From Candidatus Omnitrophota bacterium (lineage in GTDB: Bacteria; Omnitrophota; Gorgyraeia; Gygaellales; Profunditerraquicolaceae): a stretch of 64,000 bases of DNA. A program made the position numbers and the translations under genes. This document shows positions 5,776 through 29,339 of this stretch, piece by piece. The stretch is from the NCBI GenBank assembly GCA_028715785.1, contig JAQURC010000001.1:12766-76765 (forward strand). The letters run 5' to 3'. Every line of letters begins with the position of its first letter. The stretch's first letter is position 1. The notes beneath the pieces were generated by a model that saw nothing but the letters and a program-made list of their open reading frames with translations, was not told where the DNA came from and did not search any database.

Positions 5776-5801
5776 GTAGGGGAGGTTTAAACCTCCCCTA
5801 C
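5776..5801. repeat. 26-bp perfect palindrome GTAGGGGAGGTTTAAACCTCCCCTAC (REP-like hairpin family, copy 1)
   Basis: Exact inverted repeat centred on TTTAAA. Intergenic between the pilO-like gene and gspG. Identical core at 11448 and 14488, covariant cores at 15911 and 60555. Confidence 0.8.
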
Positions 5802-8197: not shown

Positions 8198-8464
8198 ATG
8201 ATTTGGGAAGCTGAAACTGAAAGTAAATTTAAGACCCTGATTTCCAAAATACCCGTATTCCATCGGCATATTACCGAATCAGTGGTCAGCCGCCAAGCAG
8301 AGAAAATCGCCGGCAATCGTAATTGCAGCCAGGTGGAAGATCGGGATGTGATCGCCGCTTTTTTCTCCGATGTCCCCTCGCCGTTCTACAGCATGATGGT
8401 CCGTCTTCTTGAGCAGAATGGTTTTGATTATAAAAAGTACGGTTTTCCAAAGGAGACTCGGTGA
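8198..8464 (+). CDS. Small PCP_red-like domain protein (protochlorophyllide-reductase 57 kDa C-terminal-like fold), function unknown
   Basis: 88 aa. WEAETESKFKTLISKIPVFHRHITESVVSRQAEKIAG resembles PCP_red family small proteins. First gene after a promoter-like gap (TTGACA at 8089). Confidence 0.35.
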   Translation: MIWEAETESKFKTLISKIPVFHRHITESVVSRQAEKIAGNRNCSQVEDRDVIAAFFSDVPSPFYSMMVRLLEQNGFDYKKYGFPKETR

Positions 8465-9468
8465 TGCGTATAGCAATCATTGGCGCCGGGGCCATAGGCT
8501 GTTTGGTTGCCGCTTATCTTAAGGAAAAGGGCGAAGATGTAACCTTAGTCGGCCGCAGTGGTGCGGTCAAGGCGATTAGAGAAAACGGTATTATTGTTTC
8601 AGGGATCAGGGGCAATCTTTTGGCGCATATCGGCATTTCCGACACCCTGAACTATGTCCCGGATTTAGCGATCCTGGCTACTAAAACACAGGATATCAAT
8701 TCTGTTTTGCAGGATAACTCGCATTTACTGCAGAACTCCCTCTTGTTGACCATTCAAAACGGCGTCCGGGCGGATAGTCTGGTTGCCCGGTACGTGCCTG
8801 CGCAGAAGGTTATTTCCAGCATAGTCATGTTCGGTGCAACCAACTTAGAGCCGGGCAAGGTAGTGCATAATTTCGAAGGCAGCTGGGTATTGGGGAGTTT
8901 CTTTAATCCCAATCCTTCCGAGTCTCTGCTGTCCGTGAGCCTGGTTTTAGATAAGGCGTTCCCGACGATAATAAGCAAAGACATAAAGGGGATGAAATAT
9001 TTGAAGATTTTTGTCAATGCCAGCAATTGCCTGCCGGCAATCATCGGCAAGAGCATGCAGGAGGTCTTTAGCGACCTGGCGGTCAGCCGGATCAGTATCG
9101 CTATCTGGAAAGAAGCCTTCAGGATTATCGATTATATCGGGATAGATCTGGTCTCTCTCCCGGGGTTCCCGCTGGAAAACCTTACCAAGCTTACTTCGAT
9201 GCCCAGCGAGTTGGCGGCCCAGGTTTTTTCGGAACGCATGAAAAACCTGAGCAAAGAACCGTTATACGGTTCGATACTACAGAGCATAATGCGCGGTAAC
9301 CTTTCGGAGATCGATTATATTAACGGTGAATTTGTGCGCCTGGCCGAAGAGAATTCTATGCAGGCTCCTTTAAATAAGATTTTAGTGGAGATGGTGCATC
9401 AGGTGGAAAAGAATAACCGGTTTTTCAGCAAAGAAGATTTAATCCAGAAAACAAAAGAGTTGATTTAG
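8461..9468 (+). CDS. 2-dehydropantoate 2-reductase family oxidoreductase (ApbA/PanE-like)
   Basis: N-terminal Rossmann IAIIGAGAIGCLVAAYL...DVTLVGR. ~335 aa typical of the ketopantoate reductase family. 4-bp overlap with the upstream gene. Confidence 0.65.
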   Translation: MMRIAIIGAGAIGCLVAAYLKEKGEDVTLVGRSGAVKAIRENGIIVSGIRGNLLAHIGISDTLNYVPDLAILATKTQDINSVLQDNSHLLQNSLLLTIQNGVRADSLVARYVPAQKVISSIVMFGATNLEPGKVVHNFEGSWVLGSFFNPNPSESLLSVSLVLDKAFPTIISKDIKGMKYLKIFVNASNCLPAIIGKSMQEVFSDLAVSRISIAIWKEAFRIIDYIGIDLVSLPGFPLENLTKLTSMPSELAAQVFSERMKNLSKEPLYGSILQSIMRGNLSEIDYINGEFVRLAEENSMQAPLNKILVEMVHQVEKNNRFFSKEDLIQKTKELI

Positions 9469-9472
9469 AAAA

Positions 9473-10060
9473 ATGAAAGAAGTTAAAACCCCTTTTCCCC
9501 GCTTAAAACTTACCGTAACCCAAGTCTTGGGGGATTGTTACCACGGTTATAAAAGCGGCGATGAAATTATTTTAGAAGATTTTACCCACGCCCCGGTCCA
9601 TTTTTGCTTAGGGCTGGCGCACGCGCTTTTTCCGGTAATCTATGCTTTGAGCTTTGGGGCAAAATTCGGGTTCCGCGATAACCAACGCTCTTTACTGGTC
9701 ACCTGCCCCGACGGAGGAAAGCTGGAATTTAAGGCCGAGATTTTAGATAAAGGGGGTAAACTTGAGGTTGTCCCAAGAGATCCCCGGCATAAAGGGCCAA
9801 ATCCCAAGAAGATGGTTATTGAGGTAGTTGAGGCAAAAGGGAAATGCGCCTTTGGATATAAAGTCGGGGACAAATGGGAGACGCAGGGTTTAAAATGTAT
9901 CCCGGGTTTTTGCGGGGCGGCATTCCACACGGCTTTTCCGGCATTGTTTGCCTTAAATTTCGGAGCCAAATTTTTCTTTATGCCGGATCCGGATTCAATC
10001 GATACGGTTACCTGCCCGGACGGCGGCAATATTGTGTTTAAGGTGACAAGGGTCGAATAA
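9473..10060 (+). CDS. Tandem-duplicated TIGR04076-family protein (two ~95-aa repeats with conserved Cys/His/Pro residues)
   Basis: Both halves carry KGxCxxGYKxGD...CP.GFCxxAFHxxFPxxxALxFGAKF...TCPDGG...VFKVTRVE. Internal repeat visible by eye. Confidence 0.55.
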   Translation: MKEVKTPFPRLKLTVTQVLGDCYHGYKSGDEIILEDFTHAPVHFCLGLAHALFPVIYALSFGAKFGFRDNQRSLLVTCPDGGKLEFKAEILDKGGKLEVVPRDPRHKGPNPKKMVIEVVEAKGKCAFGYKVGDKWETQGLKCIPGFCGAAFHTAFPALFALNFGAKFFFMPDPDSIDTVTCPDGGNIVFKVTRVE

Positions 10061-10178: not shown

Positions 10179-11441
10179 ATGAATAAACGACGAGTTGTGA
10201 TTACCGGCATTGGAGTAATTTCGCCAAACGGCATTGGTAAATATAACGCCTGGGAAGGTTTTTCCAGCGGAAAAAGCGGGGTACGTTTAGTTGACGGCTT
10301 TGACGTCTCGGTTTTTAATACCAAGATTGCCGCCGAAGTCAGGGATTTTGACCCTTTTAAATTAGGGCTGAACCACCAGGAGGCCATGCGTATGGACCGC
10401 TATGTGCAGTTCGGGGTAACTGCCGGCAAAATGGCGGTAGAGGACAGTAAATTAGATTTTTCCAAAGAAGATACCCGGCGCATCGGAGTTTGTTTGGCCA
10501 ATGCCATCTGCGGGACAAAATATATGGAGGAGGAGTTTGCTTTAGTTACCGAGGACGGGAAAAAACCGATTAATCCGGCTTTAGTGCGGCCGGATTTATA
10601 CGACGCGGCGATGTTTAACACTCCTTCGATAGAAATCAGCGCGCGTTTTGGCTTAAAAGGGATTTGCAATACTATTTCTACCGGATGCACTGCCGGCACG
10701 GATTCATTGGGTTTTGGTTTAGAAAGTATCCAGGATGGGGAGCAGGATGTAATGATCTGCGGGGCCGCGGAAGCCCCGCTTACCCCGATCACCTTCGGCG
10801 CTTTTGATGTGGTCAATGTTTTATCCGTGCACAATGACCATCCGCAGAAAGCATCGCGCCCTTTTGATAATCAGCGCGACGGATTTGTGCTCGGAGAAGG
10901 GGCGGGGATTCTAGTCCTTGAAGAATTAAATCACGCTTTAAAACGCAATGCCCCGATTTATTGCGAAGTGTTAGGTTTTGGCACCAGCTGTAATGCCTTT
11001 CACATGACCGACCTGCCTTCCGACGGCCGGGCAATGGAAACCTGTATCAGCTTGGCTTTAAAAGATGCGGAAATAAAACCGGATGAAATTGATTATATTA
11101 ACGCCCATGGCTCAAGCACGCGGATGAATGATATTTTTGAAACCAACGCCTACAAGGCGATTTTCGGCCAGTATGCTTATAAGCTGCCGATCAGTTCGCT
11201 TAAGTCCATGATCGGACATCCCCTGGCTGCGGCAAATGCCATTGAGATGACCATGGTTTCGATGATGTTTGAAAAAAACATCCTGCCTCCGACGATAAAT
11301 CAGGACGAAAAAGACCCGCAGTGCGATTTATATTATATTCCCAATCAGGCAATCCAGAAAAAAGTTAACACGATCATAAAAACCAGCAGCGGTTTTTCAG
11401 GGATACATTCGTCATTGGTTTTAAAAAGGTTTAAGGAGTAA
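10179..11441 (+). CDS. Beta-ketoacyl-ACP synthase (KAS I/II-type, catalytically intact; KS-alpha-like)
   Basis: Active-site Cys in TISTGCTAGTDS. His in AFHMTD and INAHGSST. GHPLAAANAIE. Full Cys-His-His triad. Confidence 0.9.
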   Translation: MNKRRVVITGIGVISPNGIGKYNAWEGFSSGKSGVRLVDGFDVSVFNTKIAAEVRDFDPFKLGLNHQEAMRMDRYVQFGVTAGKMAVEDSKLDFSKEDTRRIGVCLANAICGTKYMEEEFALVTEDGKKPINPALVRPDLYDAAMFNTPSIEISARFGLKGICNTISTGCTAGTDSLGFGLESIQDGEQDVMICGAAEAPLTPITFGAFDVVNVLSVHNDHPQKASRPFDNQRDGFVLGEGAGILVLEELNHALKRNAPIYCEVLGFGTSCNAFHMTDLPSDGRAMETCISLALKDAEIKPDEIDYINAHGSSTRMNDIFETNAYKAIFGQYAYKLPISSLKSMIGHPLAAANAIEMTMVSMMFEKNILPPTINQDEKDPQCDLYYIPNQAIQKKVNTIIKTSSGFSGIHSSLVLKRFKE

Positions 11442-11447
11442 TCCAGA

Positions 11448-11473
11448 GTAGGGGAGGTTTAAACCTCCCCTAC
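11448..11473. repeat. 26-bp palindrome GTAGGGGAGGTTTAAACCTCCCCTAC (REP-like, copy 2) with flanks CCAGAG/TCTGTGGATAA
   Basis: Identical core to 5776 and 14488. Between the two KS genes. Confidence 0.8.
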
Positions 11474-11493: not shown

Positions 11494-12735
11494 ATGGAAA
11501 AAATCGCAATTACCGGCATCGGCGTAGTCAGCCCTTCGGGTATCGGAAAGCGGCAGTTCTGGGCAAACCTTAAAAGCGGGCGCTCGTTTATTAAAAAGAT
11601 CACCCGTTTTGACGCCTCATTATACCCGGCGCATATTGCCGGCCAGATCGACGATTTGGAAAAATACAGCCATATTTCCGAAAGGCTCTTAAAAAAAATC
11701 GACGCCTTTTCGCATATGGCGCTGGTGGCTTCGGAGATGGCCCTGCAGGACGCCGGGATCGATATTAAAAATGAGGATCCAAGTCTTGTGGGGATTTTTT
11801 TGGGCAACGCTATCGGCGGCTGGCTGTATGCTGAAACCGAATTAAGGGATTTATATTTAGAAGGCCGGGAGGGCGTTTCGCCTTATATGGCCTCGGCCTG
11901 GTTTCCCGCGGCTCCCCAGGGGCAGGTCTCCATTTATTATGGAATAAAAGGTTTTAGCAAGACCGTGGTCAGCGACCGGGCCAGCTCTTCGATGGCTTTA
12001 GGGTACGCCAGGAAAGTTTTAGCTAAAAACAAACTAAATATGATTTTGGCAGGGGGGATGGAGGCTCCGGTTACCCCGTATGCCTTATTATGTTGTAATA
12101 CTTATGGGGCGCTATCTAAGAATAACAACAATCCCCAGGGAGCGTACCGGCCATTCGATAAACAGCGCAGCGGTTTTGTCATCGGCGAAGGCGCCGGAAT
12201 TGTAGTAATGGAAAGTATCCCGCGCGCCCAAGAAAGAGGAGCAAATATTTTAGGGGTAATTAGCGGATACGGCACCACTTGTGACGGGGCGGATAGGATT
12301 AATTGCGCCAGTGACGGCAAAGAGTTGGCGCGCGCCATTAATATGGCGCTTAGTGACGCAAAGGTAAATCCCGAAGAGATCGGTTATATCAGTTTAGATG
12401 GTTTAGCAGTTGATCTTTGGGATAATTCTGAAATTGCGGCGTTGAAACTGGTTTTTGGAAATAATTTAAAAAATATTCCGCTCAGCTGCCCCAAATCCAT
12501 GTTCGGGAATTTGCTCGGCGCATCCGGGGCATTGGATATGATTATCGCGCTTTTAACTATGGAGCACGGTTTGGTTGCCCCGACTTTAAATTTAGAGGCC
12601 CCGGTTTTGAACAATTTAAATTATGTGGCCGGTGAAGCCAGGGAATATAAAGTAAGCAAGTCTTTGATCATCTCGCGCGGCCGCGGCGGGATTAATTCGG
12701 TTCTAGTAGTTGAGAAAAACGGAGGAAAAAAATGA
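11494..12735 (+). CDS. Ketosynthase-like protein lacking the catalytic triad (chain-length-factor / KS-beta-like partner)
   Basis: Thiolase-fold KS homology throughout. The active-site position reads SDRASS (Cys->Arg). The His positions read GTTCDG and ISLDGLAV (His->Cys/Asp). 4-bp ATGA overlap with the downstream radical SAM gene. Confidence 0.75.
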   Translation: MEKIAITGIGVVSPSGIGKRQFWANLKSGRSFIKKITRFDASLYPAHIAGQIDDLEKYSHISERLLKKIDAFSHMALVASEMALQDAGIDIKNEDPSLVGIFLGNAIGGWLYAETELRDLYLEGREGVSPYMASAWFPAAPQGQVSIYYGIKGFSKTVVSDRASSSMALGYARKVLAKNKLNMILAGGMEAPVTPYALLCCNTYGALSKNNNNPQGAYRPFDKQRSGFVIGEGAGIVVMESIPRAQERGANILGVISGYGTTCDGADRINCASDGKELARAINMALSDAKVNPEEIGYISLDGLAVDLWDNSEIAALKLVFGNNLKNIPLSCPKSMFGNLLGASGALDMIIALLTMEHGLVAPTLNLEAPVLNNLNYVAGEAREYKVSKSLIISRGRGGINSVLVVEKNGGKK

Positions 12736-14192
12736 AAATATTATTCGTTATGCCCAGGGTAGGCGCGTGGGCGACGCACGGCATTCACCGGTCACCGAAC
12801 CAGCTTTACGCGCACTGGGCTGCGTATGCGCGGGAGAGGGGTTACGAAGATGTCGCGGTCATCGACGGAAGGGCCCTGGAAATACCCATGGAGCAGCTGG
12901 TGGAGCAGGTAAAGGCAAAAAACCCGGATGTAGTGGTCATGGGAGAGCAACTGCACGGTTATGGCGGCTACGGCGTATTACGGCATTTTAAAGACGCGGC
13001 CATTGGGATTAAAAAAGCGCTGCCTAAAACAAAAATAATTCTCGGCGGGCTATGGTATTCAGCAATGCCGGTGCCGACATTAGAGGAGAACTCCGCGGTT
13101 GACTTTGTGGTTATGGGTGAAGAGGAATCTTTCGGAGACTTGATCGAAGCAATAGATAAAAATAAGCCGCTTGGCGATGTGGGTGGCGTTACTTCCCGTA
13201 TTGACGGGGCAATTGTTATGGGCCCGCATAAGCCGCTGATGGAAGATTTAGACAAGCTTCCTTTGCCGGCTTATGATTTATTTCCGATGGATAAATACGT
13301 GGGCCATACTTATTGGAAACCGTTTGTGGATATGGTAACCTCAAGGGGCTGCCCTTCAGCCTGTACTTTTTGCTACGAATGGGACCAGTTTGATCCGCGT
13401 TCGCCTTCAGATTTCTTGAAATGGCGGGCTAAATCTCCGGAAAGAGTCATGGAAGAAATGAATCTTCTGCATAGAAAATACGGGGTTAAAGTCGTAGTTA
13501 TTCAGGACGATAATTTTAATGTCGACCCTAAAAGAGTGCAGAAGTTTTGCGAACTTAAAAAAGCATCGAATAATCCAATCAAGTGGGTATCTTTAGGCCG
13601 GGCTGTTGATTGGGTCAATTGCGAATCCATCCTGCCCCTGATGAAAGAAAATGGTTTATTCATGGGCGTTTTTGGCATCGAGGTGACGACCCAGTCAGAG
13701 CTTAAACGGATCGCCAAAGGCATTACTATCGACCAGATTAAAAAAACCATAGAGATCTTACGCAAGAATGATATCGCTATCGTGGCGGATATCATGATGG
13801 GTTTTGATTATGACACCGAGGCTATCGTCAAGCAGAGGTTTGAGTTTACCGATATGGTGGACCCGGATATTTTATGGGTAGGTTATGTTACCCCTGCCCC
13901 GAATTCACCGATGTGGAGGATTGCTCTAAAGAAAAACTGGATTGATCCTAAGAAAGTAGATTTTAGCCAATGGGATTTTCTCCATCCGGTAATCCCTACG
14001 GACCATCTATCCACAGAAGACCTTGGCCGTTTGGGTTCCTGGTGCATGCGTGAATTTTTCTCAAAGCCCGGGCGGATAAACAGGATTATGGAGAGTAATT
14101 TTGATCCGTTAGCCAAGCTCTGTTTCAAGGATGTTATGGATGGAATAGGCAAATGGGAAGCAGTCGCGACAAAAGGCGAAGTGCAGATATAA
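12732..14192 (+). CDS. Class B (cobalamin-binding) radical SAM enzyme
   Basis: N-terminal B12-binding-like domain, then radical SAM SRGCPSACTFCYE (CxxxCxxC). 486 aa. The first ~300 nt are markedly GC-rich. Confidence 0.85.
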   Translation: MKILFVMPRVGAWATHGIHRSPNQLYAHWAAYARERGYEDVAVIDGRALEIPMEQLVEQVKAKNPDVVVMGEQLHGYGGYGVLRHFKDAAIGIKKALPKTKIILGGLWYSAMPVPTLEENSAVDFVVMGEEESFGDLIEAIDKNKPLGDVGGVTSRIDGAIVMGPHKPLMEDLDKLPLPAYDLFPMDKYVGHTYWKPFVDMVTSRGCPSACTFCYEWDQFDPRSPSDFLKWRAKSPERVMEEMNLLHRKYGVKVVVIQDDNFNVDPKRVQKFCELKKASNNPIKWVSLGRAVDWVNCESILPLMKENGLFMGVFGIEVTTQSELKRIAKGITIDQIKKTIEILRKNDIAIVADIMMGFDYDTEAIVKQRFEFTDMVDPDILWVGYVTPAPNSPMWRIALKKNWIDPKKVDFSQWDFLHPVIPTDHLSTEDLGRLGSWCMREFFSKPGRINRIMESNFDPLAKLCFKDVMDGIGKWEAVATKGEVQI

Positions 14193-14251: not shown

Positions 14252-14491
14252 ATGGATATAAAAATAAAAGTTAAAGAAGTGTTGGCGAATTTGCTAAAAG
14301 TTAAAATTGAAGAGTTAAAGGATGAGGTATCTTTGATCAACAGTATCGGCGTGGATTCTACCGAGATGGTGGAGTCGGTAATTGCCCTGGAAAAATCATT
14401 TGGGGTCAAGCTTAGCCCCAAGGAGATCACCAAGAATTCGACCATTAACGATATCGTAAATAATATCCAGCCAAAGTTATCCACAGAGTAG
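14252..14491 (+). CDS. Acyl carrier protein
   Basis: 79 aa. GVDSTEMVE phosphopantetheine-attachment motif. The stop TAG lies inside the REP palindrome. Confidence 0.8.
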   Translation: MDIKIKVKEVLANLLKVKIEELKDEVSLINSIGVDSTEMVESVIALEKSFGVKLSPKEITKNSTINDIVNNIQPKLSTE

Positions 14492-14513
14492 GGGAGGTTT
14501 AAACCTCCCCTAC
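14488..14513. repeat. 26-bp palindrome GTAGGGGAGGTTTAAACCTCCCCTAC (REP-like, copy 3), left flank TTATCCACAGA
   Basis: Identical core. Overlaps the acp stop codon. Confidence 0.8.
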
Positions 14514-15455: not shown

Positions 15456-15896
15456 ATGGGACATACTTGCAATTCAATAATTATTAAGGCGCCTTATGAG
15501 TTAGTTTTTGATATCTCTAATGACATCCCGCGCTGGACGCAGTTGTTCGGCAGCGAATATAAAAAAGCCGAAATCCTAAAAAAAGAAGCCAACAAAATCA
15601 CTTTTCGCCTTACCGACGACGAAGATAAATCCTGGGTTTCCTGGAGATTGTTATACAAGGATAATTTCTTTACCTATTCGGAGCGCTATGAACCGAAATT
15701 CCCCTTTAATTATATGAAAATTATCTGGCTCTATACGCCAAAGCCCGAAGGGATAGAGTTAACTTGGATCCAGCATTTCCAGATGGATGAAAAGGCCAAG
15801 TTTAACGATGAGCAGGTGGAAGGTTTTATCAATAAACATTCCAAAGAGAACTTATTGATTTTTAAGAAGGTTATTGAAGAGGCAGCACTTAAATAA
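15456..15896 (+). CDS. SRPBCC superfamily protein (polyketide cyclase/dehydrase-like, Bet v1 fold)
   Basis: 146 aa. IIKAPYELVFDISNDIPRWTQLF N-terminus and overall pattern typical of Polyketide_cyc2/SRPBCC proteins. Confidence 0.55.
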   Translation: MGHTCNSIIIKAPYELVFDISNDIPRWTQLFGSEYKKAEILKKEANKITFRLTDDEDKSWVSWRLLYKDNFFTYSERYEPKFPFNYMKIIWLYTPKPEGIELTWIQHFQMDEKAKFNDEQVEGFINKHSKENLLIFKKVIEEAALK

Positions 15897-15910
15897 AGGT
15901 TATTCACAAT

Positions 15911-15936
15911 GTAGCGGACGTTTAAACGTCCGCTAC
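15911..15936. repeat. 26-bp palindrome GTAGCGGACGTTTAAACGTCCGCTAC (REP-like, copy 4; covariant arms)
   Basis: Same architecture and TTTAAA centre as 5776. Both arms changed in a complementary way. Confidence 0.75.
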
Positions 15937-15967
15937 GGTCAGGTTAGGATTATACGGGAGGTTAATT

Positions 15968-16744
15968 ATGAGCACAGATTTAAAAGGCAGGATTGCCATT
16001 GTTACCGGTGCCAGCCGCGGTATCGGTAAATCTTTAGCTTCAACCGCAGCAGGTTTGGGCATAAATTTAGTTATCGGCGCCAGAGGACAAGGCCCTTTAG
16101 AAGAAACTGCGGATGAGCTTGCCAGGAAATATAAGGTCCGGGTATTGCCGGTTGCCTGCGACGTCACAAAATTAGAGGACTTGGAAAATTTGGTAAACAA
16201 GGCTAAAGCTGAATTCGGCAAAGTCGATATTTTGATTAATTGCGCCGGAGTTTCCTCGCAATATCCTTTTAACGAGCAGCCGATCGAGGATTTTGAAAAA
16301 TTGGCGCATACGAATTATCTGGGCTATGTGCGGTTAATCCGCCTGGTAATTAACGATATGATCAAACAAAAATACGGGGCGATCATCAATATCGTTTCCG
16401 GCTCGACGCTGGTGGATCCTGTCCCCAGAAATTTCATTGTTTACAGCTCGCTTAAAGTCGGCCTGCGCGCTTTTTCAAAAGGCCTGTTTTGGGAGTTGCG
16501 CGACCACGGGATCAAGGTTACTTCTATTTTACCCGGAGTCACCGATACGGATTTAACCGGCAAGCTTAAGGATATTACCAGCGATACATCGCGCCTTATG
16601 AGCACGCAGGCAATCGAGGATGCGGTGCGTTTTGCTTTGACTGTGCCGGCTAATGTTTGTCCTCTTGAGATCTCGGTAATTAACCAACAAACACCTTGGA
16701 CTGCTCCGGTAATACCGTTTAAACAGCAGCACCCGGGAAAATAA
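15968..16744 (+). CDS. SDR-family oxidoreductase (ketoreductase-like)
   Basis: TGASRGIGKSLA cofactor motif. YSSLKVGLRAF (YxxxK) catalytic motif. Confidence 0.85.
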   Translation: MSTDLKGRIAIVTGASRGIGKSLASTAAGLGINLVIGARGQGPLEETADELARKYKVRVLPVACDVTKLEDLENLVNKAKAEFGKVDILINCAGVSSQYPFNEQPIEDFEKLAHTNYLGYVRLIRLVINDMIKQKYGAIINIVSGSTLVDPVPRNFIVYSSLKVGLRAFSKGLFWELRDHGIKVTSILPGVTDTDLTGKLKDITSDTSRLMSTQAIEDAVRFALTVPANVCPLEISVINQQTPWTAPVIPFKQQHPGK

Positions 16745-16757
16745 GCGGAGAGAAGAA

Positions 16758-17369
16758 ATGAAAAAAATATTTTTTGCGGCAGCAACAGTAGTTTTATTTA
16801 CGGCAGGGGTTTGTTTAGCTGAAGGCGGTAATTTATTAATTGATGATTTTGAAATTTCAGTTACCGGCGGCCCCGAAGGAACGGTTGATTTCGGCGCAGG
16901 TAACGGCTCAAGCGTGGAGGTAACAGCGGCTAGTGATATTAAAAATAGCGGCAATCAGGCATTAAAGGTAGTTTATGACGCATCTCCGGGAGGATATATT
17001 TATGTAGCCCGCGGCTTTGGGCTTGACGCCAGGAACGCTAACTGGCCAATCCAGCCTTCGGATATTAAATGGGAAGAATACAGCGCGATATCATTCTATG
17101 TTTACGGAGCGGATTCTAAAGCGAAAATCGCTTTTGATATAAAAGATAACGGCGGGGAGATCTGGCGTTTTATGACCGAGGATGATTTTAAAGGCTGGAA
17201 GAAAGTAGTTTGCAGTTTTGATAAATTTGTCGTGCGCGACGATTGGCAGCCAAACGACGCGGACAATAACAAGCAGTTGGATTTTCCGGTTAAGATCTTC
17301 CAATTTGAACCGCTTCCCGGATCAAAAGGGACTTTTTATTTTGACACGGTGGAGCTGGTTAGAAAATAA
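16758..17369 (+). CDS. Secreted beta-sandwich protein (CBM11/CIA30-like), function unknown
   Basis: Signal peptide MKKIFFAAATVVLFTAGVCLA. Gly/aromatic-rich beta-strand pattern. Confidence 0.35.
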   Translation: MKKIFFAAATVVLFTAGVCLAEGGNLLIDDFEISVTGGPEGTVDFGAGNGSSVEVTAASDIKNSGNQALKVVYDASPGGYIYVARGFGLDARNANWPIQPSDIKWEEYSAISFYVYGADSKAKIAFDIKDNGGEIWRFMTEDDFKGWKKVVCSFDKFVVRDDWQPNDADNNKQLDFPVKIFQFEPLPGSKGTFYFDTVELVRK

Positions 17370-17382
17370 GAAAGGTGGGGAT

Positions 17383-17796
17383 ATGAATAACCAGGATGTT
17401 AAAAATTTAAAGAAACGTTATTTTATCTGGCTCTATAAAACCGCCAAAGAAACCTTTGATAAATATGAACGCAAGTTTACGCAAGTCGATATCGATAAGG
17501 ATATCCTGGCGGAAATGGAGAAAGAGCTTTTAGGTTCCTACCTTCCCCATGAAAAAGATGCCCTGCAGAGGCAGATCAACGATTTTCAGAAATATATCGA
17601 AAATAAGGAAAAGGCCTGTTCAGAACTCAGGGACCAGCATAGAAAGATCAATCCGGATTTTATTTTCTCGGAAATAAAACTGAATGCGATTGAGAAGGTA
17701 ATCGTCAGGGGGTTGGGCAGGAGGGGGCTGGAAGAGATCAGGTCCCTTTATGAAAAAGAGATGGCCGAACGCATCTTAAAGAGCACGGAGCATTGA
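17383..17796 (+). CDS. Hypothetical coiled-coil protein
   Basis: ATG at 17383 after AAAGGTGGGG. The upstream part of the ORF-track frame overlaps the previous gene. Confidence 0.4.
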   Translation: MNNQDVKNLKKRYFIWLYKTAKETFDKYERKFTQVDIDKDILAEMEKELLGSYLPHEKDALQRQINDFQKYIENKEKACSELRDQHRKINPDFIFSEIKLNAIEKVIVRGLGRRGLEEIRSLYEKEMAERILKSTEH

Positions 17797-18707
17797 TGTT
17801 AATCGACGCGCATAGCCACTGGCTGCCGGATGAAATAATTAATAATGCCCATTTTTTCCATAAGGGCTGGGGGGATATCCAGGCGCAGCTGGCGATCATG
17901 GAGGCGCTGGGGATCAACCGGGCGGTTTTAAGTTATCCTAATTCGGACGCGCATTTGAAATTAGGCAGTGTCAGCCAAGTGGCGCATATTTATAATGATA
18001 ATGTCGCCAAAATTTTAAAGGCCCATCCCAAAAGATTTATCGGCGCCGCAGTTTTGCCTGTGGATAATTCCGTCGATATGCTGGAAGAGCTAAGGCGGGC
18101 AATCAATGAACTGGGTTTTAAGGCAATTTCCCTTGCCTCAAGCTATAACGGTATATATTTAGACGATAAGATGTTTTTACCTATATATAAAGAAGCGCAA
18201 GAGAAGGATATCCCGATCTTTGTGCATCCGCAGATTGTAAACCCGATAGGTTTTGAGCGGGTCAAGGATCCGCTGCTTACTCCGGTTGTTGAATATGTTT
18301 TTGACACCACGATTTCAATCGGCAAGCTTTTAATGTCGGATATTTTGCGCCAGTATCCTAAAGTAAAATTTATTTTCGCCCATTTCGGCGGGGCAATCTG
18401 CTATCTTAAGCAGCGTTTTGACGCCACCTATCAGATGCTGCGGGGGATGAACTTTGTCAAAGACCTGCAGGGGCTTCCTTCGGATTATCTTAAGAATATT
18501 TACGTTGATACCAGCGGCGATACTACTAGCGCGAATTTTCTGCTTGCCCTTGAACTTATGGGGCCTAAACATATTTTGTGGGGCAGCGACTGGCCGGCAA
18601 AGAAAGATGTTGCCAGCGGCATCAAAGCCGTCAACGATTTGGATATATCCCAGGAGAATAAACAGAATATCCTGGGGGGAAATTTAGAAAAATTATTTGT
18701 TCTTTAG
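17793..18707 (+). CDS. Amidohydrolase-2 family metal-dependent hydrolase (TIM barrel)
   Basis: N-terminal IDAHSHW metal-binding motif. ~300 aa. Confidence 0.65.
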   Translation: MMLIDAHSHWLPDEIINNAHFFHKGWGDIQAQLAIMEALGINRAVLSYPNSDAHLKLGSVSQVAHIYNDNVAKILKAHPKRFIGAAVLPVDNSVDMLEELRRAINELGFKAISLASSYNGIYLDDKMFLPIYKEAQEKDIPIFVHPQIVNPIGFERVKDPLLTPVVEYVFDTTISIGKLLMSDILRQYPKVKFIFAHFGGAICYLKQRFDATYQMLRGMNFVKDLQGLPSDYLKNIYVDTSGDTTSANFLLALELMGPKHILWGSDWPAKKDVASGIKAVNDLDISQENKQNILGGNLEKLFVL

Positions 18708-19658: not shown

Positions 19659-20408
19659 ATGCAAATGCAGAAGAATGTTCATCTCACAGGCAAGGATTTA
19701 ACGGAAATGGTCCAGCTTCGGAGGCAGGATGTGGGCAAATACGCCATTGTTCCCGGGCCGCGCGACCGGCTGGATGTTTTAATGAAAAAAATAGAAAACC
19801 CGGTGCGTAATTTTTCGTTTATGGAATACACTATGTATACCGGCACTTATGAGGGGATCAAGGTTACCGGGATTAACGGCGGGAGGTTTTCCACGGACAC
19901 TTCGATTACTACCGAGGTAATGTGCAATGCCGGGATACAAAATATTATCCGCATCGGCACAGCCGGCGCCCTTGATGAAAATATCAAAGTTGGCGATCTG
20001 TTTGTAGTAGATGAGGTTATCCGCGGGGACGGGGTAACCCCTTATTATGTGGATAAAGATTTTAAAACAGTCAGTGACAAGAAGATCTCCGACCTTCTTT
20101 TTGAGATTGCCAAAGGCATGGGGTTAAACGTGCACCGCGGCAAGGCATGGACTACGGATGCGCTTTTACGCGAAACCCGCGAAATTGTCGAAGCCAAGCG
20201 CAAAGAAGGAGCAAGGGCGGTAGATATGGTTTCCTCAACGCTCTTGACTATCTGCCAGACTTATAATATTAAAGCCGGATCAATCCTGGCGGTAAGCGAT
20301 AACGTGATCACCGGAGAGATGGGCTTTATGAATCCACTTTATTATATGGCGGAAAGTAATTTAATAAAGATTGCATTGGAATTAGTTAAAAAATTAGAGG
20401 GCAAATAA
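19659..20408 (+). CDS. DeoD-type purine/MTA nucleoside phosphorylase (PNP_UDP_1 family)
   Basis: TGTYEGIKVTGINGG...IIRIGTAGAL...MVSSTLLTICQTYNIKAGSILAVSDNV parallels DeoD/Udp conserved blocks. Confidence 0.7.
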   Translation: MQMQKNVHLTGKDLTEMVQLRRQDVGKYAIVPGPRDRLDVLMKKIENPVRNFSFMEYTMYTGTYEGIKVTGINGGRFSTDTSITTEVMCNAGIQNIIRIGTAGALDENIKVGDLFVVDEVIRGDGVTPYYVDKDFKTVSDKKISDLLFEIAKGMGLNVHRGKAWTTDALLRETREIVEAKRKEGARAVDMVSSTLLTICQTYNIKAGSILAVSDNVITGEMGFMNPLYYMAESNLIKIALELVKKLEGK

Positions 20409-20411
20409 ACT

Positions 20412-20556
20412 TGTCATTGCGAGCCCCGAAGGGGCGAAGCAATCTCGCTTTTAAGATTGCGCAGCCTGTTCCGAGCGAAGCGAAGGAATCCGGTTGCGAG
20501 GGGCTGCTGGTTTGCTTCGGCTTCGCCTCGCAACCGCTGCGCTCCTCGCAATGACA
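20412..20556. repeat. MITE-like element, TGTCATTGCGAG family, copy 2 (145 bp, composite)
   Basis: Terminal IRs TGTCATTGCGAG / CTCGCAATGACA with an extra internal partial copy (GGTTGCGAGG...CCTCGCAACC). Its translation forms the spurious N-terminal extension of ORF 20457. Confidence 0.7.
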
Positions 20557-20561
20557 CTAAA

Positions 20562-21482
20562 ATGACTATGAAATTTTCTCCCTTATTTTGGCCGATACAA
20601 TTGAAGGGCAATGTAATTTACATCTTGGATGAAACTAAATTGCCGCAAAGGTTGGTTTATCTCAAGGCCAAAAATTACTTAGAGGCATGCCGGGCAATCA
20701 AGCAGATGAAGACCCGCGCCGTAGGCCAGGTGCTTTTGGTAATGTATGCCTTTCTTTTAAGCAAGCGGCAGAATAAAAATTTAGCCAAAGTCGCCAAAGC
20801 CATTAACGCCACCCGGCCGACCCTATCCTTTAAATTTTTAACCGATATGGTTTTAAGCTGGGAAAAAGGCGGCGCGCCGCTTGAAAAAAGTATTTTAGGT
20901 TTCCTAGCGATGCTTAAAACCAAACGTATCGAGCAGGCCAGGGAGGCGGCTAAATTACTTAAAGACGGCGATGTAGTCTTGACACACTGTAATATCAGCG
21001 GCCTGATGCCCTTAATTGCCGAGTTTGCCAAAGAGCAGGGCAAGAAAATAAGTTTTTACGTTACGGAAACCCGTCCGTATTTGCAAGGCTCGCGCCTTAC
21101 TGCCTGGGAAATCCAGCGCGCGGGTTTTGATGTTACGATCATCACCGATAATATGGTGGCATATTTATTATCGTTAGGTAGAGTGACCAAAGTTATCGTC
21201 GGAGCAGACCACTTAACCTTAAACGGGGACATCGCCAATAAGATCGGCACCTATCAGATCGCGGTAGTCGCCAGGTATTTCAAGATTCCTTTTTACGTAA
21301 TCTGTCCGCCGGCATCGAAATTAAAAAGCGGAAAAGAAATTAAAATTGAAATCCGGCCGGATAATGAATTAAAAATTTATCAGGGGCTGCATTTGGCGCC
21401 CAAAGAGGTTAAAGCGTATTATCCGGCCTTTGACGTTACGCCGGCAAAATTAATTACCCGGCATATTCATTTGGGGGTTTAA
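20562..21482 (+). CDS. mtnA: S-methyl-5-thioribose-1-phosphate isomerase (eIF-2B alpha/beta/delta family)
   Basis: YVTETRPYLQGSRLTAWE and GADHLTLNGDIANKIGTYQIAVVA blocks. The ATG at 20562 follows the MITE, whose terminal CAATGAC supplies an upstream in-frame ATG-ACA-CTA-AAA-TGA mini-ORF. Confidence 0.8.
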   Translation: MTMKFSPLFWPIQLKGNVIYILDETKLPQRLVYLKAKNYLEACRAIKQMKTRAVGQVLLVMYAFLLSKRQNKNLAKVAKAINATRPTLSFKFLTDMVLSWEKGGAPLEKSILGFLAMLKTKRIEQAREAAKLLKDGDVVLTHCNISGLMPLIAEFAKEQGKKISFYVTETRPYLQGSRLTAWEIQRAGFDVTIITDNMVAYLLSLGRVTKVIVGADHLTLNGDIANKIGTYQIAVVARYFKIPFYVICPPASKLKSGKEIKIEIRPDNELKIYQGLHLAPKEVKAYYPAFDVTPAKLITRHIHLGV

Positions 21483-22478
21483 ATGCCAGAGCAGGAATTA
21501 AAACTGGAAATTATCCAGGTAGGCAGGCGGCTTTATGCTGCCGGCCTGGCCGTAGCCAAGTCCGGAAATTTAAGCGCACGGCTTGACAGCGAGAATATCC
21601 TGATTACCGCCACCGGAACAGCCTTGGGCCAGTTAAAAGAAAGCGATATCGTTAAGGTAAATTTAGCCACCGGTAAATCCGAGGCAGGGCCGAACCCCAG
21701 CTCCGAACTGCCTTTGCACAGTTTAGTCTATAAAAATTTTCCGGCTAAGGTTGTAATCCATTGCCATCCGCCGCTAATTAACGGATATTTTGCCGTCGCC
21801 AAAACGCTTAAGGCAATGAGTTTTGAAACTAAATTTTATCTCGGAGATATTCCGGTAATCCCCCAGGAAACCCCGACGGTGACGGCTCCTGCGCCGGTTA
21901 TCGCGGCATTAAAAACAAATAATCTGGTTATCTTGAAGAATCACGGGACAGTGGCAATTGGCGATAAGTTTGAAGAGGCCCTAAGTATTACCGAAGCATT
22001 AGAGGAGGCGGTTAAAAGCGCCGCCGTTGGCCGGCTGTTTGATAAAAACATTTTGGATGATTTAGACTTGGCTTTAAAAGATGATTTAAAGCGCAATGAC
22101 CCGGCCTATGCCATGTTTAGCCTGCCGCATATCCAGGCAATCGTGGATTTAGTCAACAAGGATGAGTTTATCGCCCAAAAGGGAAAAGAGCTGGGCCTGA
22201 CGGTGCAGCTGGCGATCAAGCTCGATGACACGAGCGAGGTTTTTAAATTTAGTTTTGAGCAAGGCAAAATCGTAAAACTGGATACTGACAGCCTTGCCCC
22301 TTTTGTTATTTCCGCGCCCCGGCCTGTATGGGAGCAGGTATTTTTAGGCAAACTGGATTCATTTGTGGCAGTTACCCAGGGTAAAATGAAATTAAGCGGC
22401 CAATTAGGCCAGCTTTCCAAATGGTATGTCCCGTTTAACCGCCTTTTTGTTTTATTCCGGGAGGTAAAAATCAAATGA
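21483..22478 (+). CDS. Class II aldolase/adducin-domain protein fused to a C-terminal SCP2-like domain (candidate methylthioribulose-1-P aldolase or dehydratase)
   Basis: VVIHCHPPLINGYFAV class II aldolase metal-binding block. C-terminal ~110 aa with GKMKLSGQLGQLSK is SCP2-like. Confidence 0.65.
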   Translation: MPEQELKLEIIQVGRRLYAAGLAVAKSGNLSARLDSENILITATGTALGQLKESDIVKVNLATGKSEAGPNPSSELPLHSLVYKNFPAKVVIHCHPPLINGYFAVAKTLKAMSFETKFYLGDIPVIPQETPTVTAPAPVIAALKTNNLVILKNHGTVAIGDKFEEALSITEALEEAVKSAAVGRLFDKNILDDLDLALKDDLKRNDPAYAMFSLPHIQAIVDLVNKDEFIAQKGKELGLTVQLAIKLDDTSEVFKFSFEQGKIVKLDTDSLAPFVISAPRPVWEQVFLGKLDSFVAVTQGKMKLSGQLGQLSKWYVPFNRLFVLFREVKIK

Positions 22479-23962
22479 ATTTAAAATGCCCGCTTTATAT
22501 CAACGGACAATTTATCGAAACCGCGGAAAAACAGAATATCATTAATCCCTCTACCGGTAAGGTGATTGCTGAGTCTTCTCATGCTTCGGTAAAAGAGGTG
22601 GAACTGGCTATATCCGCTGCCCGAGAAGCTTTTGATCATGGGCCCTGGCCGCATTTTTCTTTAGCTGAGCGTAAGGAATTTATTTCAAAGATCGCTCAAG
22701 GCATTTTAGCTAATGCTGGAGAACTTGCCCAGTTGGAGACACACAATACCGGCAAGCCGATCAAAGAAACTACTTTTATGGATATCCCCTCTAGCGCGAA
22801 AACTTTTGAGTTTATGGCGGACAATTTTGCCGCCTATCTTCACAATGAAAAAGTCAATATTCCTGAAGATGCCCAGGCCAAGATAGTTTCTGAAGCTATA
22901 GGGGTGGTGGTTTTGATTGTGCCTTGGAACTATCCGCTATTAATCGCCTGTTGGAAGCTGGCTTCCGCTTTGGCTGCCGGTAACACGGTTATTTTAAAGC
23001 CCTCCAGCCTTACTCCGCTTACGGCCTTAGAACTTGCAAAAATTATCCATCAAGCCGGTTTTCCCGCCGGAGTGGTAAATGTAATTAACGCAACCGGAGC
23101 AAAAATCGGGGAACATCTTTGCGCGGATAAACGCGTGGATATGGTCTCCTTTACCGGCAGCAACGAAACAGGCAAACAGGTCCTGCAGTATTCTTCCAAA
23201 AACGTGAAGAAGCTGATTATGGAGCTTGGCGGCAAATCCGCCAATTTGATATTTAATGATGTGGATTTGGATGTGGCGGTGAATAGCTCCCTTACCTCTA
23301 TTTTTTTAAACCAGGGGCAGATGTGCACGGCGATGTCGCGGATTTTCGTGCAAGAGGGTATTTATGATAATTTTCTGGCCAGCTTTATCGAGAAGGCCAA
23401 ACGCATAAAATTGGGTTTAGCCGATAATTTTGAAACGCAGATGGGCCCCTTGATCACCGACGCGCAGCGCAAAAAAGTCATTGCTTATATTGACAAGGCA
23501 AAGGCCGAAGGAGGCCAGGTCTTGTGCGGGGGGAAAATTCCGGAAGACGCGGAACTGAAAAACGGTTATTTCTTTGAGCCCACGGTTTTAGTTGACGTCG
23601 GAGCGCATTTGCATATAGCCAAGGAAGAGGTTTTTGGCCCGGTAGTCTTGGTGCATAAATTTTCCAGTCCGGATGAAGCCGTGGCTTTAGCCAATAGCGT
23701 GGATTTTGGTTTGGCTGCCTGCATTTGGAGCAAAGATTTATCTTTGGCACAGGATTTGGCCAAAAAAATAAATGCCGGCACGGTTTGGATCAATACTTAC
23801 GGCATGTTTTATAACCAGCTTCCTTACGGCGGGTTTAAGCAGAGCGGCTTCGGCAAGGAGCTGGGCCGGCACGGATTTTTGGAATATACCCGTTTAAAAA
23901 ATATAATTATCGACCAGTCCCAGGCAGGCAAGCCCCTGGTTAATTACTGGTACGGATTCTAA
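22475..23962 (+). CDS. NAD(P)-dependent aldehyde dehydrogenase
   Basis: 495 aa. ELGGKSANLIF and catalytic Cys in QGQMCTAMSRIFV. FTGSNETGK. ALDH-family architecture. Confidence 0.85.
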   Translation: MNLKCPLYINGQFIETAEKQNIINPSTGKVIAESSHASVKEVELAISAAREAFDHGPWPHFSLAERKEFISKIAQGILANAGELAQLETHNTGKPIKETTFMDIPSSAKTFEFMADNFAAYLHNEKVNIPEDAQAKIVSEAIGVVVLIVPWNYPLLIACWKLASALAAGNTVILKPSSLTPLTALELAKIIHQAGFPAGVVNVINATGAKIGEHLCADKRVDMVSFTGSNETGKQVLQYSSKNVKKLIMELGGKSANLIFNDVDLDVAVNSSLTSIFLNQGQMCTAMSRIFVQEGIYDNFLASFIEKAKRIKLGLADNFETQMGPLITDAQRKKVIAYIDKAKAEGGQVLCGGKIPEDAELKNGYFFEPTVLVDVGAHLHIAKEEVFGPVVLVHKFSSPDEAVALANSVDFGLAACIWSKDLSLAQDLAKKINAGTVWINTYGMFYNQLPYGGFKQSGFGKELGRHGFLEYTRLKNIIIDQSQAGKPLVNYWYGF

Positions 23963-25506
23963 TGAATGCAGCCAGACTCTTAGAGCAGCGCGCAAAAGAA
24001 TACGGGCAGAAAACGGCGGTTATTTTCCGCCAGGAGGAGATTTCATTTGCCCGGTTAAAGGACAGGGTATTTTCTCTAAGCGCCAGCCTGCTTAAGCTGG
24101 GCGTCAAGCCGCATGATTTAGTCGCAATTTATCTTCCTAACCGGCCGGAATATATTGTCAGCTATCTGGCGATCTGGTCCATCGGCGCCTGCAGCGTGCC
24201 GTTGGATTTTATGCTTACCGAAGATGAAATAACCTCCTGCCTGGCGCACTGCCAGGCAAAAATTTTAATTACCAAACATAAAGCCGGTATCTCATTTGCA
24301 AATTTAAAGGCCAGGCTCCCTTTATTAAAAAATATTATTTTCTGTCAGTCAGAAGATAAAGAATGCTTAAGTTTCGAGAAATTGCTGGAGGAGGGGGCCA
24401 AAGAAAACCCCGGAATAGAAATTAACGAGAAAGATCCCGCCATAATTTTTTATACCTCCGGCACTACCGGTAAGCCCAAAGGCGTCTTGATCAATTATGC
24501 CCAATTGGATGCCCCGCCAAAATCCATGGCCTTTTTTGTCAACTCGGATTTAAGCGCAAAAGATACCGCGCTCTGCGCTTTGCCATTCTCCCACTTAGGC
24601 GGGTTAATTTATATCCAGAATATGCTCTCTTTCGGCTTATCCCTGGTCCTAATGGAGCGTTTTATGCCTTTGGATTTTTTGAAAAACGTGCAGAATTATA
24701 AAGTTAATTTTTTCTGGATTGTCCCTTCGATGTATTACGCGCTCCTGCAGTTAAAAGAGTTTGAGACATTTGATTTATCCAGCCTGCGCTGGATTGTTAC
24801 TTTCGGCGCTTCCAATTCTCCGGATGCTTTACGCAGGTTTCATCAGTTTTGTCCCAAGGCTTATCTTTTAAACGGCTGGGGCCTGACCGAGACCAATGCC
24901 CCCACCGTAGTGCTGCCGATGGGCTCGGAAAATATCGAAAGCGTAGGGCGCCCTGCCCCTTGGATTGAGGTCAAGATATTTTCAGAGAGCGGCCAGGAGT
25001 TGCCCGCAGGCCGGATAGGGGAAGTAGCGGTAAAGAGCTGGGTAGTTACCGACGGATATTTTAAGGATGCGGAATTAACGCAGGAAACTATCCGCGCTGG
25101 CTGGTTTTACACCGGAGACTTAGGCAGGTTTGATGTCCGGGGTTTTCTTTATATCGTCGGCAGGAAAAAAGAAATGATTAAGGTCGGCGGCGAGATTGTT
25201 TTTGAGCCGGAGGTGGAGGCAGCCTTACAAAAATATCCGGATATTGCGGAAGCCGCGGTAATCGGAGTGGCCGATAAGCTAAGAGGAGAGGCGCCCAAGG
25301 CATTTTTGGTGGCTAAAGAAGGCAGGAAAGTTTGCGAAGAAGATTTACGTTATTTCTTGCGCCAGCATTTGGCGCATTTTAAGATTCCGCATTATTTCGA
25401 ATTTTGCGCCTGTCTTCCCAAGAACCGCGTTGGTAAGATTGATAAAGAACGATTACGTTTGTGTCATTGCGAGGGCGAAGCCCGAAGCAATCTTAAACAT
25501 ATATAA
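23962..25506 (+). CDS. AMP-dependent acyl-CoA synthetase/ligase
   Basis: YTSGTTGKPKGV AMP-binding motif. The last ~14 codons and the stop are supplied by the downstream MITE. Confidence 0.8.
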   Translation: MNAARLLEQRAKEYGQKTAVIFRQEEISFARLKDRVFSLSASLLKLGVKPHDLVAIYLPNRPEYIVSYLAIWSIGACSVPLDFMLTEDEITSCLAHCQAKILITKHKAGISFANLKARLPLLKNIIFCQSEDKECLSFEKLLEEGAKENPGIEINEKDPAIIFYTSGTTGKPKGVLINYAQLDAPPKSMAFFVNSDLSAKDTALCALPFSHLGGLIYIQNMLSFGLSLVLMERFMPLDFLKNVQNYKVNFFWIVPSMYYALLQLKEFETFDLSSLRWIVTFGASNSPDALRRFHQFCPKAYLLNGWGLTETNAPTVVLPMGSENIESVGRPAPWIEVKIFSESGQELPAGRIGEVAVKSWVVTDGYFKDAELTQETIRAGWFYTGDLGRFDVRGFLYIVGRKKEMIKVGGEIVFEPEVEAALQKYPDIAEAAVIGVADKLRGEAPKAFLVAKEGRKVCEEDLRYFLRQHLAHFKIPHYFEFCACLPKNRVGKIDKERLRLCHCEGEARSNLKHI

Positions 25507-29241: not shown

Positions 29242-29339
29242 TTAAACCGGCCGATTTATTCTCTGTTGACTTAAGGTTATCATTGTAGTATTTTAAATTA
29301 GTGGTTTTATTAACAAAAAATAGAGAGGAGGGAGGGAGA

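Follow-up and report, generated by a model that had tools for sequence, protein, structure and literature searches.

What does a ketosynthase (KS) do once it has lost the residues with which ketosynthases carry out catalysis? This question is raised by a 64,000-nucleotide stretch of contig JAQURC010000001.1 from a Candidatus Omnitrophota bacterium, called the window in the following, which encodes two ketosynthases next to each other on the forward strand. KS1 (positions 10179 to 11441) has an intact Cys-His-Lys-His active site and is, judged by its alignments and its matches in the PDB, an active ketosynthase of the KS-alpha type. KS2 (11494 to 12735) is catalytically dead. We conclude that KS2 is very likely the KS-beta subunit, or chain-length factor (CLF), of a polyketide synthase (PKS) of type II, in which it is the inactive partner of KS1.

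Loss of the catalytic residues in a retained ketosynthase fold

The open reading frame of KS2 starts with ATG, encodes 413 amino acids and ends with TGA. Both ketosynthase halves are recognized by Pfam (PF00109 with 155 bits and PF02801 with 92 bits), and an NCBI protein that is 100% identical to KS2 is annotated as 'beta-ketoacyl-ACP synthase family protein' from Candidatus Omnitrophica bacterium. A sequence-only reading of the window had claimed that Cys, His and His of the catalytic triad are lost in this second ketosynthase. This is borne out by phmmer alignments of KS2 with solved FabF structures, which show no gaps and high confidence around all three catalytic positions. The FabF sequence T-A-C-A-T corresponds to S-D-R-A-S in KS2, which places Arg162 at the position of the Cys. 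The first His is replaced by Asp267 (D-A-Y-H-I-T in FabF, D-G-A-D-R-I in KS2) and the second by Asp302 (I-N-A-H-G-T in FabF, I-S-L-D-G-L in KS2), and the catalytic Lys is kept as Lys334. The same three residue equivalences are obtained by BLASTP against KS1, with which KS2 shares 33% identity, and comparison with the actinorhodin (act) KS/CLF likewise upholds the loss. No gapped realignment restores the triad, because the remaining Cys and His residues of KS2 are too distant from positions 162 and 302. All Cys of KS2 are found at 200, 201, 263, 271 and 332 and all His at 47, 60, 74 and 358; the nearest Cys is at least 38 residues away from position 162, and no His is located within 56 residues of position 302.

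The fold, which the same reading had held to be otherwise retained, is indeed that of a ketosynthase. The AlphaFold2 model of KS2, calculated from an alignment of 36 sequences, has a mean predicted local distance difference test (pLDDT) value of 92.6, and Foldseek searches with this model yield template modelling (TM) scores of 0.93-0.96 to FabF structures, around 0.95, and of 0.93 to act CLF (1tqy_B).

Several other classes of ketosynthase homologues were considered for KS2 and rejected. KS2 is not FabF, as the triad is absent and the score against the FabF equivalog TIGR03150 is 369.9 with a cutoff of 493.75. Aryl polyene clusters contain the CLF ApeC, which is roughly half as large as its KS partner and has mostly lost the second thiolase half (PMC8358021). 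With its full length of 413 amino acids and both Pfam halves, KS2 is not of this type, and the comparison with ApeC that had been proposed earlier is unfit. The KSQ decarboxylases in the loading modules of modular PKSs carry Gln at the Cys position and keep both His, while KS2 carries Arg162 and has both His replaced by Asp.

Proposed assignment of KS2 as partner of KS1

In a neighbour-joining tree of ketosynthases (200 bootstraps, few reference sequences), KS2 joins act CLF (1tqy_B), the CLF of Clostridium beijerinckii/puniceum and a Ktedonobacter CLF in a clade with bootstrap values of 0.80-0.87, and KS1 is placed in the KS-alpha clade with a value of 0.995. The motifs AWF...GQ(I/V)SI, P-K, (A/L)DG and RGR are common to KS2 and act CLF, whose sequence was taken from the alignment of a relative, and are not found in FabF. 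Act CLF (ActI-ORF2, 1TQY chain B, 36% identity to KS2) is like KS2 a full-length homologue of ketosynthases with thiolase fold that is encoded after KS-alpha. It is also devoid of the triad: the Cys is replaced by Gln, the first His is gone, and the second His is Asp in the (A/L)DG context, with the Lys kept in the P-K motif. It differs from KS2 in carrying Glu-Gln in place of Asp-Arg. Its gate residues F109/T112/F116 correspond to W110/A113/L117 in KS2; a prediction of chain length from these residues was dropped, because relatives with the same GGW motif are assigned chain lengths that differ from one another.

The presumed heterodimer partner KS1 keeps C-H-K-H in 71 of 71 KS-alpha orthologues. 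Its top matches among solved structures are AntD (6smo_B, 380 bits) and act KS (1tqy_A, 366 bits), with every FabF scoring lower. KS1 ends 52 nt upstream of KS2 in the window. Of about 80 orthologous loci, 52 show an overlap of 1 or 8 nt between the end of KS1 and the start of KS2. Such an overlap is typical of KS-alpha/KS-beta pairs, and adjacency together with overlap is a conserved feature of the two genes. Among the relatives there are also fusion proteins of KS and CLF, for example P0122, in which the N-terminal half contains Cys-His-His and the C-terminal half does not.

Downstream on the same strand follow an acyl carrier protein (ACP) and two cyclases. The ACP (14252 to 14491) has 79 amino acids with the phosphopantetheine Ser in a GVDST motif and matches PF00550 with 42 bits; it was revealed by synteny with the related locus L013 and is absent from the sequence-only reading. 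A 'cyclase' family protein of PF04199 (14541 to 15341, 97.6 bits) occupies the OxyN-type position known from ancestral type II PKS clusters (PMC7693217). It is followed by a mono-domain aromatase/cyclase (ARO/CYC) of TcmN/WhiE type with SRPBCC fold (15456 to 15896), for which the PDB gives no other matches than the ARO/CYC of WhiE and of TcmN and a single putative polyketide cyclase, with about 88 bits and E values around 1e-24. The gene set of the window matches the 'ancestral' non-actinomycete architecture KS-CLF-ACP-TcmN-OxyN (PMC7693217). The CLF clade, the CLF motifs, the adjacency to KS1 and the presence of ACP and cyclases support the earlier proposal that KS2 is a partner of the chain-length-factor type.

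Some observations weigh against this assignment. The placement among the CLFs comes from a distance-method tree with moderate support and few references. FabF is a better match to KS2 than act CLF is, with 291 versus 260 bits. The canonical Gln of CLFs is not found in KS2, which has Arg162, although this Gln is typical of the actinomycete CLF subgroup only. Finally, strong conservation of the cluster, vertical inheritance and the presence of a gene for a B12-dependent radical S-adenosylmethionine (SAM) enzyme are unusual for an antibiotic-type aromatic PKS and resemble the lipid cluster of anammox bacteria discussed below.

From the sum of these comparisons we infer that KS2, which folds as a ketosynthase but cannot be acylated, would most likely form an obligate heterodimer with KS1, as the natural fusions of KS and CLF indirectly suggest. 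An experimental precedent for a live FabF homologue that depends on a dead one is the amxFabF2/amxFabFmut pair of anammox bacteria (see below). KS1 would perform all decarboxylative condensations on the ACP of the cluster. KS2 would lend stability to KS1 and shut the substrate tunnel where the two subunits meet, and would in this way set the length of the poly-beta-keto chain.

A protein that has lost all three catalytic residues could also be a decaying duplicate without function, or could serve mainly as scaffold for the radical SAM enzyme encoded downstream (12732 to 14192, forward strand), whose start overlaps with the KS2 stop in the window. The conservation of KS2 is not what is expected in either case. 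In a species-level scan with one genome per species, relatives of KS2 were detected in at least 172 genomes; in the best 80 of these 172, KS2 is 77-91% identical, and nearly all of them are labelled Omnitrophota. The median ratio of nonsynonymous to synonymous substitutions (dN/dS, Nei-Gojobori, each against the window gene) is 0.046 for KS2 and 0.047 for KS1, with dS saturated and the ratios therefore rough. It is clear nonetheless that the dead KS2 and the live KS1 are held under equally strong purifying selection.

Translational coupling of KS2 to the radical SAM gene had been part of the sequence-only reading. The 4-nt ATGA overlap is real in the window, but it is not conserved elsewhere. 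In a metagenome scan that yielded at least 577 related stretches, we describe variants of the cluster from 80 loci, which include several rearranged types. The radical SAM gene remains linked to the PKS through these rearrangements, while its position shifts: in loci of the window type it sits between the CLF and the ACP gene, upstream of the gene for an 88-amino acid protein that adjoins the reductase or upstream of AFOR in other variants, and kilobases upstream in more distant orthologous clusters. Elsewhere, KS2 and the radical SAM gene are separated by -1 to 537 nt. The ATGA overlap is therefore local, and it is the adjacency and overlap of KS1 and KS2 that are conserved. Selection and synteny largely refute the view of KS2 as a relic or as a scaffold for the radical SAM enzyme, which we consider highly improbable.

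The 52-nt spacer between KS1 and KS2 contains a perfect palindrome of 26 nt (11448 to 11473). The palindrome, GTAGGGGAGGTTTAAACCTCCCCTAC, is present in three intergenic copies in the window (5776-5801, 11448-11473 and 14488-14513), where none is expected by chance, and the copy at 14488-14513 overlaps the stop codon of the ACP gene. Related palindromes with a GGTTTAAACC core are found in the KS1-KS2 spacer of other Omnitrophota loci (L004, L011, L032). The element looks like a repetitive extragenic palindrome (REP)-like insertion into the spacer, of either mobile or RNA-stabilizing nature.

Residues 162 and 302 in the former active site

The residues that replace the triad are themselves conserved. 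Among 207 orthologues of KS2, Asp161, Lys334, Asn339 and Arg397 are invariant (207/207), and Arg162 and Asp302 are each found in 204. The substitutions are thus not a sequencing accident. More variation is seen at the position of the first His, with Asp in 186, Asn in 14, Ser in 4 and His in 3 of these orthologues. In orthologues with 55-60% identity to KS2, this position is Asn or His. As His is still held at this distance, loss of the first His is recent, and in the lineage of KS2 it is probably unimportant.

A wider comparison comprises 88 CLFs of the cluster family. Position 162 is mostly Arg, with Lys in 5, Cys in 2 and Ser, Thr or Ile in 4 proteins. Arg or Lys at 162 always occurs together with Asp or Glu at 302, and Ile, Thr, Ser or Cys at 162 is paired, with one exception, with Ala or Asn at 302. 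In ketosynthases, the side chains of the Cys and of the second His are in contact. Covariation of the charges at two positions whose side chains touch suggests a structural ion pair of a basic side chain at 162 with an acidic one at 302, which may fill the pocket of the dead KS2. The former active site would then be occupied by Arg162 and Asp302, possibly together with Asp267, instead of being used for catalysis. Our literature search returned no discussion of Arg at the Cys position of CLFs or of covariation between 162 and 302.

Two CLF orthologues contain Cys at the active-site position (L089:4974-6215 and L168:5980-7224). The one from L089 reads Cys/His/Asn, similar to the triad of KASIII/CHS type. 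These two CLFs may be reversions or evolutionary intermediates and may have kept activity.

The same residues could be read as catalytic. KS2 would then use Asp161-Arg162 and Lys334 either for decarboxylation of malonyl-ACP, as a 'chain initiation factor', or for binding of the carboxylate of an unusual starter. A precedent for the first function is found in actinomycete CLFs, where the conserved Gln at the Cys position, as in the act and tcm CLFs, has been linked to malonyl decarboxylation (PMC3691225; PMC6638757). The invariance of Asp161 and Lys334 and the near invariance of Arg162 would be consistent with such a role, as would the lack of a KSIII or acyltransferase for priming in the window. 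In addition, among the nearest representatives of sequence clusters at 50% identity, Asp-Arg is also present in the CLFs of Clostridium, Ktedonobacter racemifer, Archangium and Paenibacillus. However, in orthologous clusters with the same gene set, Lys, Cys, Ser, Thr or Ile freely take the place of Arg at position 162, and the covariation of charge with position 302 is expected of a structural ion pair and not of a catalytic residue. Both His, which are required for decarboxylation by ketosynthases, are gone in the KS2 lineage. AntE, the CLF of the Photorhabdus anthraquinone PKS, carries Asp at the Cys/Gln position according to a figure legend (PMC6638757), which argues that no single chemistry is conserved there. 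AntE was not among the PDB matches when the Archangium CLF was used as query. We therefore regard a catalytic KS2 as unlikely and prefer the ion pair as explanation for Arg162 and Asp302. Whether Gln, Arg or Asp is required in the former active site of CLFs is a point still debated for chain initiation.

Composition of the cluster and its possible product

The most serious rival to an aromatic PKS concerns the product and not KS2, whose role is the same in both cases. KS1 and KS2 could form a KS/CLF-like heterodimer in a fatty-acid-like or unusual-lipid pathway for which Cluster I of the anammox ladderane system is the model, with KS2 as inactive partner and a lipid as product. In anammox bacteria, amxFabF2 and amxFabFmut were shown experimentally to form a heterodimer, which is required for malonyl-ACP decarboxylation (bioRxiv 10.64898/2026.05.19.726425). 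The PDB entries 9S5H/9S5I probably represent this pair, with 9s5h_B as amxFabF2. As in the window, a live and a dead FabF homologue are encoded side by side in Cluster I, together with a cobalamin radical SAM enzyme and an ACP; amxFabFmut has, like KS2, lost Cys, His and His. Cluster I also includes a phytoene dehydrogenase homologue; the Omnitrophota cluster has the B12-radical SAM gene, and a PF01593 amine-oxidase/phytoene-desaturase-like gene is present in related cluster variants. Strong conservation of the cluster together with its flanking synteny resembles a housekeeping trait, and the slightly higher score of KS2 against FabF than against act CLF would also fit a lipid pathway.

Other observations speak against a lipid pathway. 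Cluster I contains FabZ and neither aromatase nor cyclases, while the Omnitrophota cluster includes no FabZ-type dehydratase or enoyl reductase and encodes the TcmN/WhiE-type ARO/CYC and the PF04199 cyclase. In amxFabFmut, the Cys position is Val or Thr, and the protein is encoded upstream of its live partner. The scores of KS1 against AntD and act KS-alpha are far above the 277 bits obtained with 9s5h_B, and KS2 matches act CLF better than 9s5h_C (260 versus 177 bits). The KS1/KS2 pair is thus less similar to the anammox pair than to the act or Ant KS/CLF. The radical SAM enzymes are not orthologous either: with a cutoff of 360 for the ladderane family TIGR04072, the enzyme of the window reaches 67 bits. 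KS2 was rejected as an orthologue of amxFabFmut on the same scores and the absence of FabZ, and a lipid product appears quite improbable.

An aromatic PKS is also in line with the set of genes that stay together. KS, CLF, ACP, PF04199 cyclase and TcmN-type cyclase are kept from 91% down to 43% identity of KS2, where the lowest value is that of Clostridium beijerinckii and C. puniceum, the producers of clostrubin. The full core of PanE-like reductase, TIGR04076 protein, KS, CLF, ACP, cyclase, SRPBCC protein and Amidohydrolase_2 protein is present at 57% (L081) and 45% (L083) KS2 identity. For L086, with 40% identity of KS2, the 4-kb contig makes only TIGR04076, KS, CLF, ACP and SRPBCC visible.

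The genes described below for the 88-amino acid protein, the reductase, the TIGR04076 protein, the radical SAM enzyme, the SDR and the Amidohydrolase_2 protein lie on the forward strand. Upstream of KS1, an 88-amino acid protein (8198 to 8464) adjoins the reductase and is conserved; in variant clusters its gene is located directly 3' of the radical SAM gene. Its Pfam matches are all below threshold (DUF2621 with 26 bits, protochlorophyllide reductase B C-terminal domain with 17 bits). The reductase itself (8461 to 9468) is assigned to the NAD(P)H-dependent PanE/ApbA family from profile matches and is conserved in the cluster by synteny. Next comes a tandem-fused protein with two repeats of TIGR04076 (9473 to 10060), whose place upstream of KS-alpha is conserved across many related clusters. 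Three Cys are invariant in each repeat, and an invariant His is found in repeat 1 (His24) and in repeat 2 (His152). The family travels with this type of PKS (window 9473-10060, L083:1179-1848, L086:95-658, L087:11260-11784). It occurs as tandem fusion in Omnitrophota; more distant clusters have it as two individual genes upstream of KS-alpha, and in the cluster of Clostridium beijerinckii it is fused to an ACP directly after the CLF. These features suggest an unrecognized component, possibly metal binding, that acts on the ACP or together with it.

The B12-binding radical SAM enzyme is BchE/HpnJ-like, but its scores are far under the cutoffs of those families (199 bits against BchE). Its gene is the most conserved of the cluster, with a dN/dS of 0.023. 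We consider the enzyme a candidate for oxygen-independent tailoring of aromatic polyketides; the only precedent found for radical SAM tailoring is a HemN-like radical SAM anthraquinone methylase (PMC9714029).

Downstream of the ARO/CYC, a classical short-chain dehydrogenase/reductase (SDR) is encoded (15968 to 16744). It is a possible ketoreductase, and an assignment to the act-KR type was rejected: the protein is a generic SDR and is absent from the clusters at 57% KS2 identity or less (L081, L083). For these reasons the SDR is not used to argue for a reduced polyketide. In many orthologous loci a gene for a 375-amino acid MFS transporter is located between aromatase/cyclase and SDR (L013:14384-15511), which the window lacks at 15896-15968. 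Between SDR and amidohydrolase, many loci encode a CBM11-like carbohydrate-binding protein with a signal-peptide-like N-terminus (16758-17369 in the window) that has no obvious link to polyketide synthesis. The Amidohydrolase_2 protein (17793 to 18707) belongs to a family that includes aromatic-acid decarboxylases and is conserved with the cluster, including that of Clostridium.

A few kilobases further downstream, five genes in the region 19659-25506 encode a PNP_UDP_1 phosphorylase, an IF-2B/MtnA-like isomerase, a class II aldolase-SCP2 fusion, an aldehyde dehydrogenase and an AMP-binding ligase. In L081, the PKS is likewise followed by the first three of them. This set seems to resemble the dihydroxyacetone phosphate (DHAP) shunt, which salvages 5'-deoxyadenosine, the by-product of radical SAM enzymes. 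A 251-amino acid protein without a Pfam match is encoded at 29301-30056; its N-terminal segment is hydrophobic, and it contains a long stretch of charged repeats of DRREDVRDRRED type.

The closest relative of KS2 that we found in a cultured organism is the CLF P0130 of Clostridium beijerinckii/C. puniceum with 43% identity. From organism and gene context, P0130 is very probably ClrB of the clostrubin pathway. Like KS2, it has Asp-Arg at the Cys position and an acidic residue, here Glu, at the position of the second His. The cluster of this strict anaerobe shares with the window KS-alpha, PF04199 cyclase, SRPBCC cyclase, Amidohydrolase_2 and the TIGR04076 domain, which is ACP-fused in Clostridium. 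It differs in the presence of KSIII, ACPS genes and hydrolases, its product is clostrubin, and neither B12-radical SAM nor PanE-like reductase is encoded within 10 kb of the CLF. Other non-actinobacterial 'ancestral' type II PKSs are AntD/AntE of Photorhabdus (AQ-256 anthraquinone PKS, 6SMO) and the KS-CLF of Ktedonobacter racemifer. The Ktedonobacter CLF (P0159) has Asp-Arg like KS2, but keeps His at the second-His position; AntE is like KS2 without the CLF Gln, as far as the figure legend cited above indicates. The act cluster, in contrast, belongs to an aerobic actinomycete and is without B12-radical SAM and TIGR04076 genes.

In the pathway that we propose, the TcmN/WhiE-type ARO/CYC and the PF04199 cyclase would fold the chain made by the KS1/KS2 pair, and oxygen-independent tailoring of the product would fall to the B12-radical SAM enzyme, the PanE-like reductase and the amidohydrolase-2 enzyme. 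By itself, a dead ketosynthase next to a live one is ordinary, as this arrangement defines the chain-length factors of type II PKSs. A 2023 bioinformatic catalogue already contains KS-CLF pairs from Candidatus Omnitrophica, without characterizing them, and describes some CLFs that look like ketosynthases of fatty acid synthases (PMC10132072). The value of KS2 lies in its context, an 'ancestral-type' aromatic PKS on which strong purifying selection acts in no fewer than 172 species-level genomes from a phylum of tiny, uncultured and mostly anaerobic bacteria, accompanied by a B12-radical SAM enzyme and by an uncharacterized Cys/His-rich family that is also found in the clostrubin-type cluster of Clostridium. 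We tentatively suggest that KS1 and KS2 may stand at the centre of a pathway that is strictly anaerobic and inherited vertically, both in Omnitrophota and in further uncultured anaerobes. With radical SAM enzyme, TIGR04076 protein, PanE-like reductase and amidohydrolase-2, it might lead to a novel aromatic polyketide with a physiological and not an antibiotic role, for example a redox-active quinone or pigment, and the pair of residues 162 and 302 might seal the dead site of the CLF. The cluster is a defined target for reconstitution, from which it could be learned what anaerobes make with type II PKSs and how aromatic polyketides are tailored without oxygenases. If this suggestion is true, the oxygen-independent tailoring chemistry would be new, and the 162/302 pair would represent a previously undescribed way of sealing the dead site of 'ancestral' CLFs.

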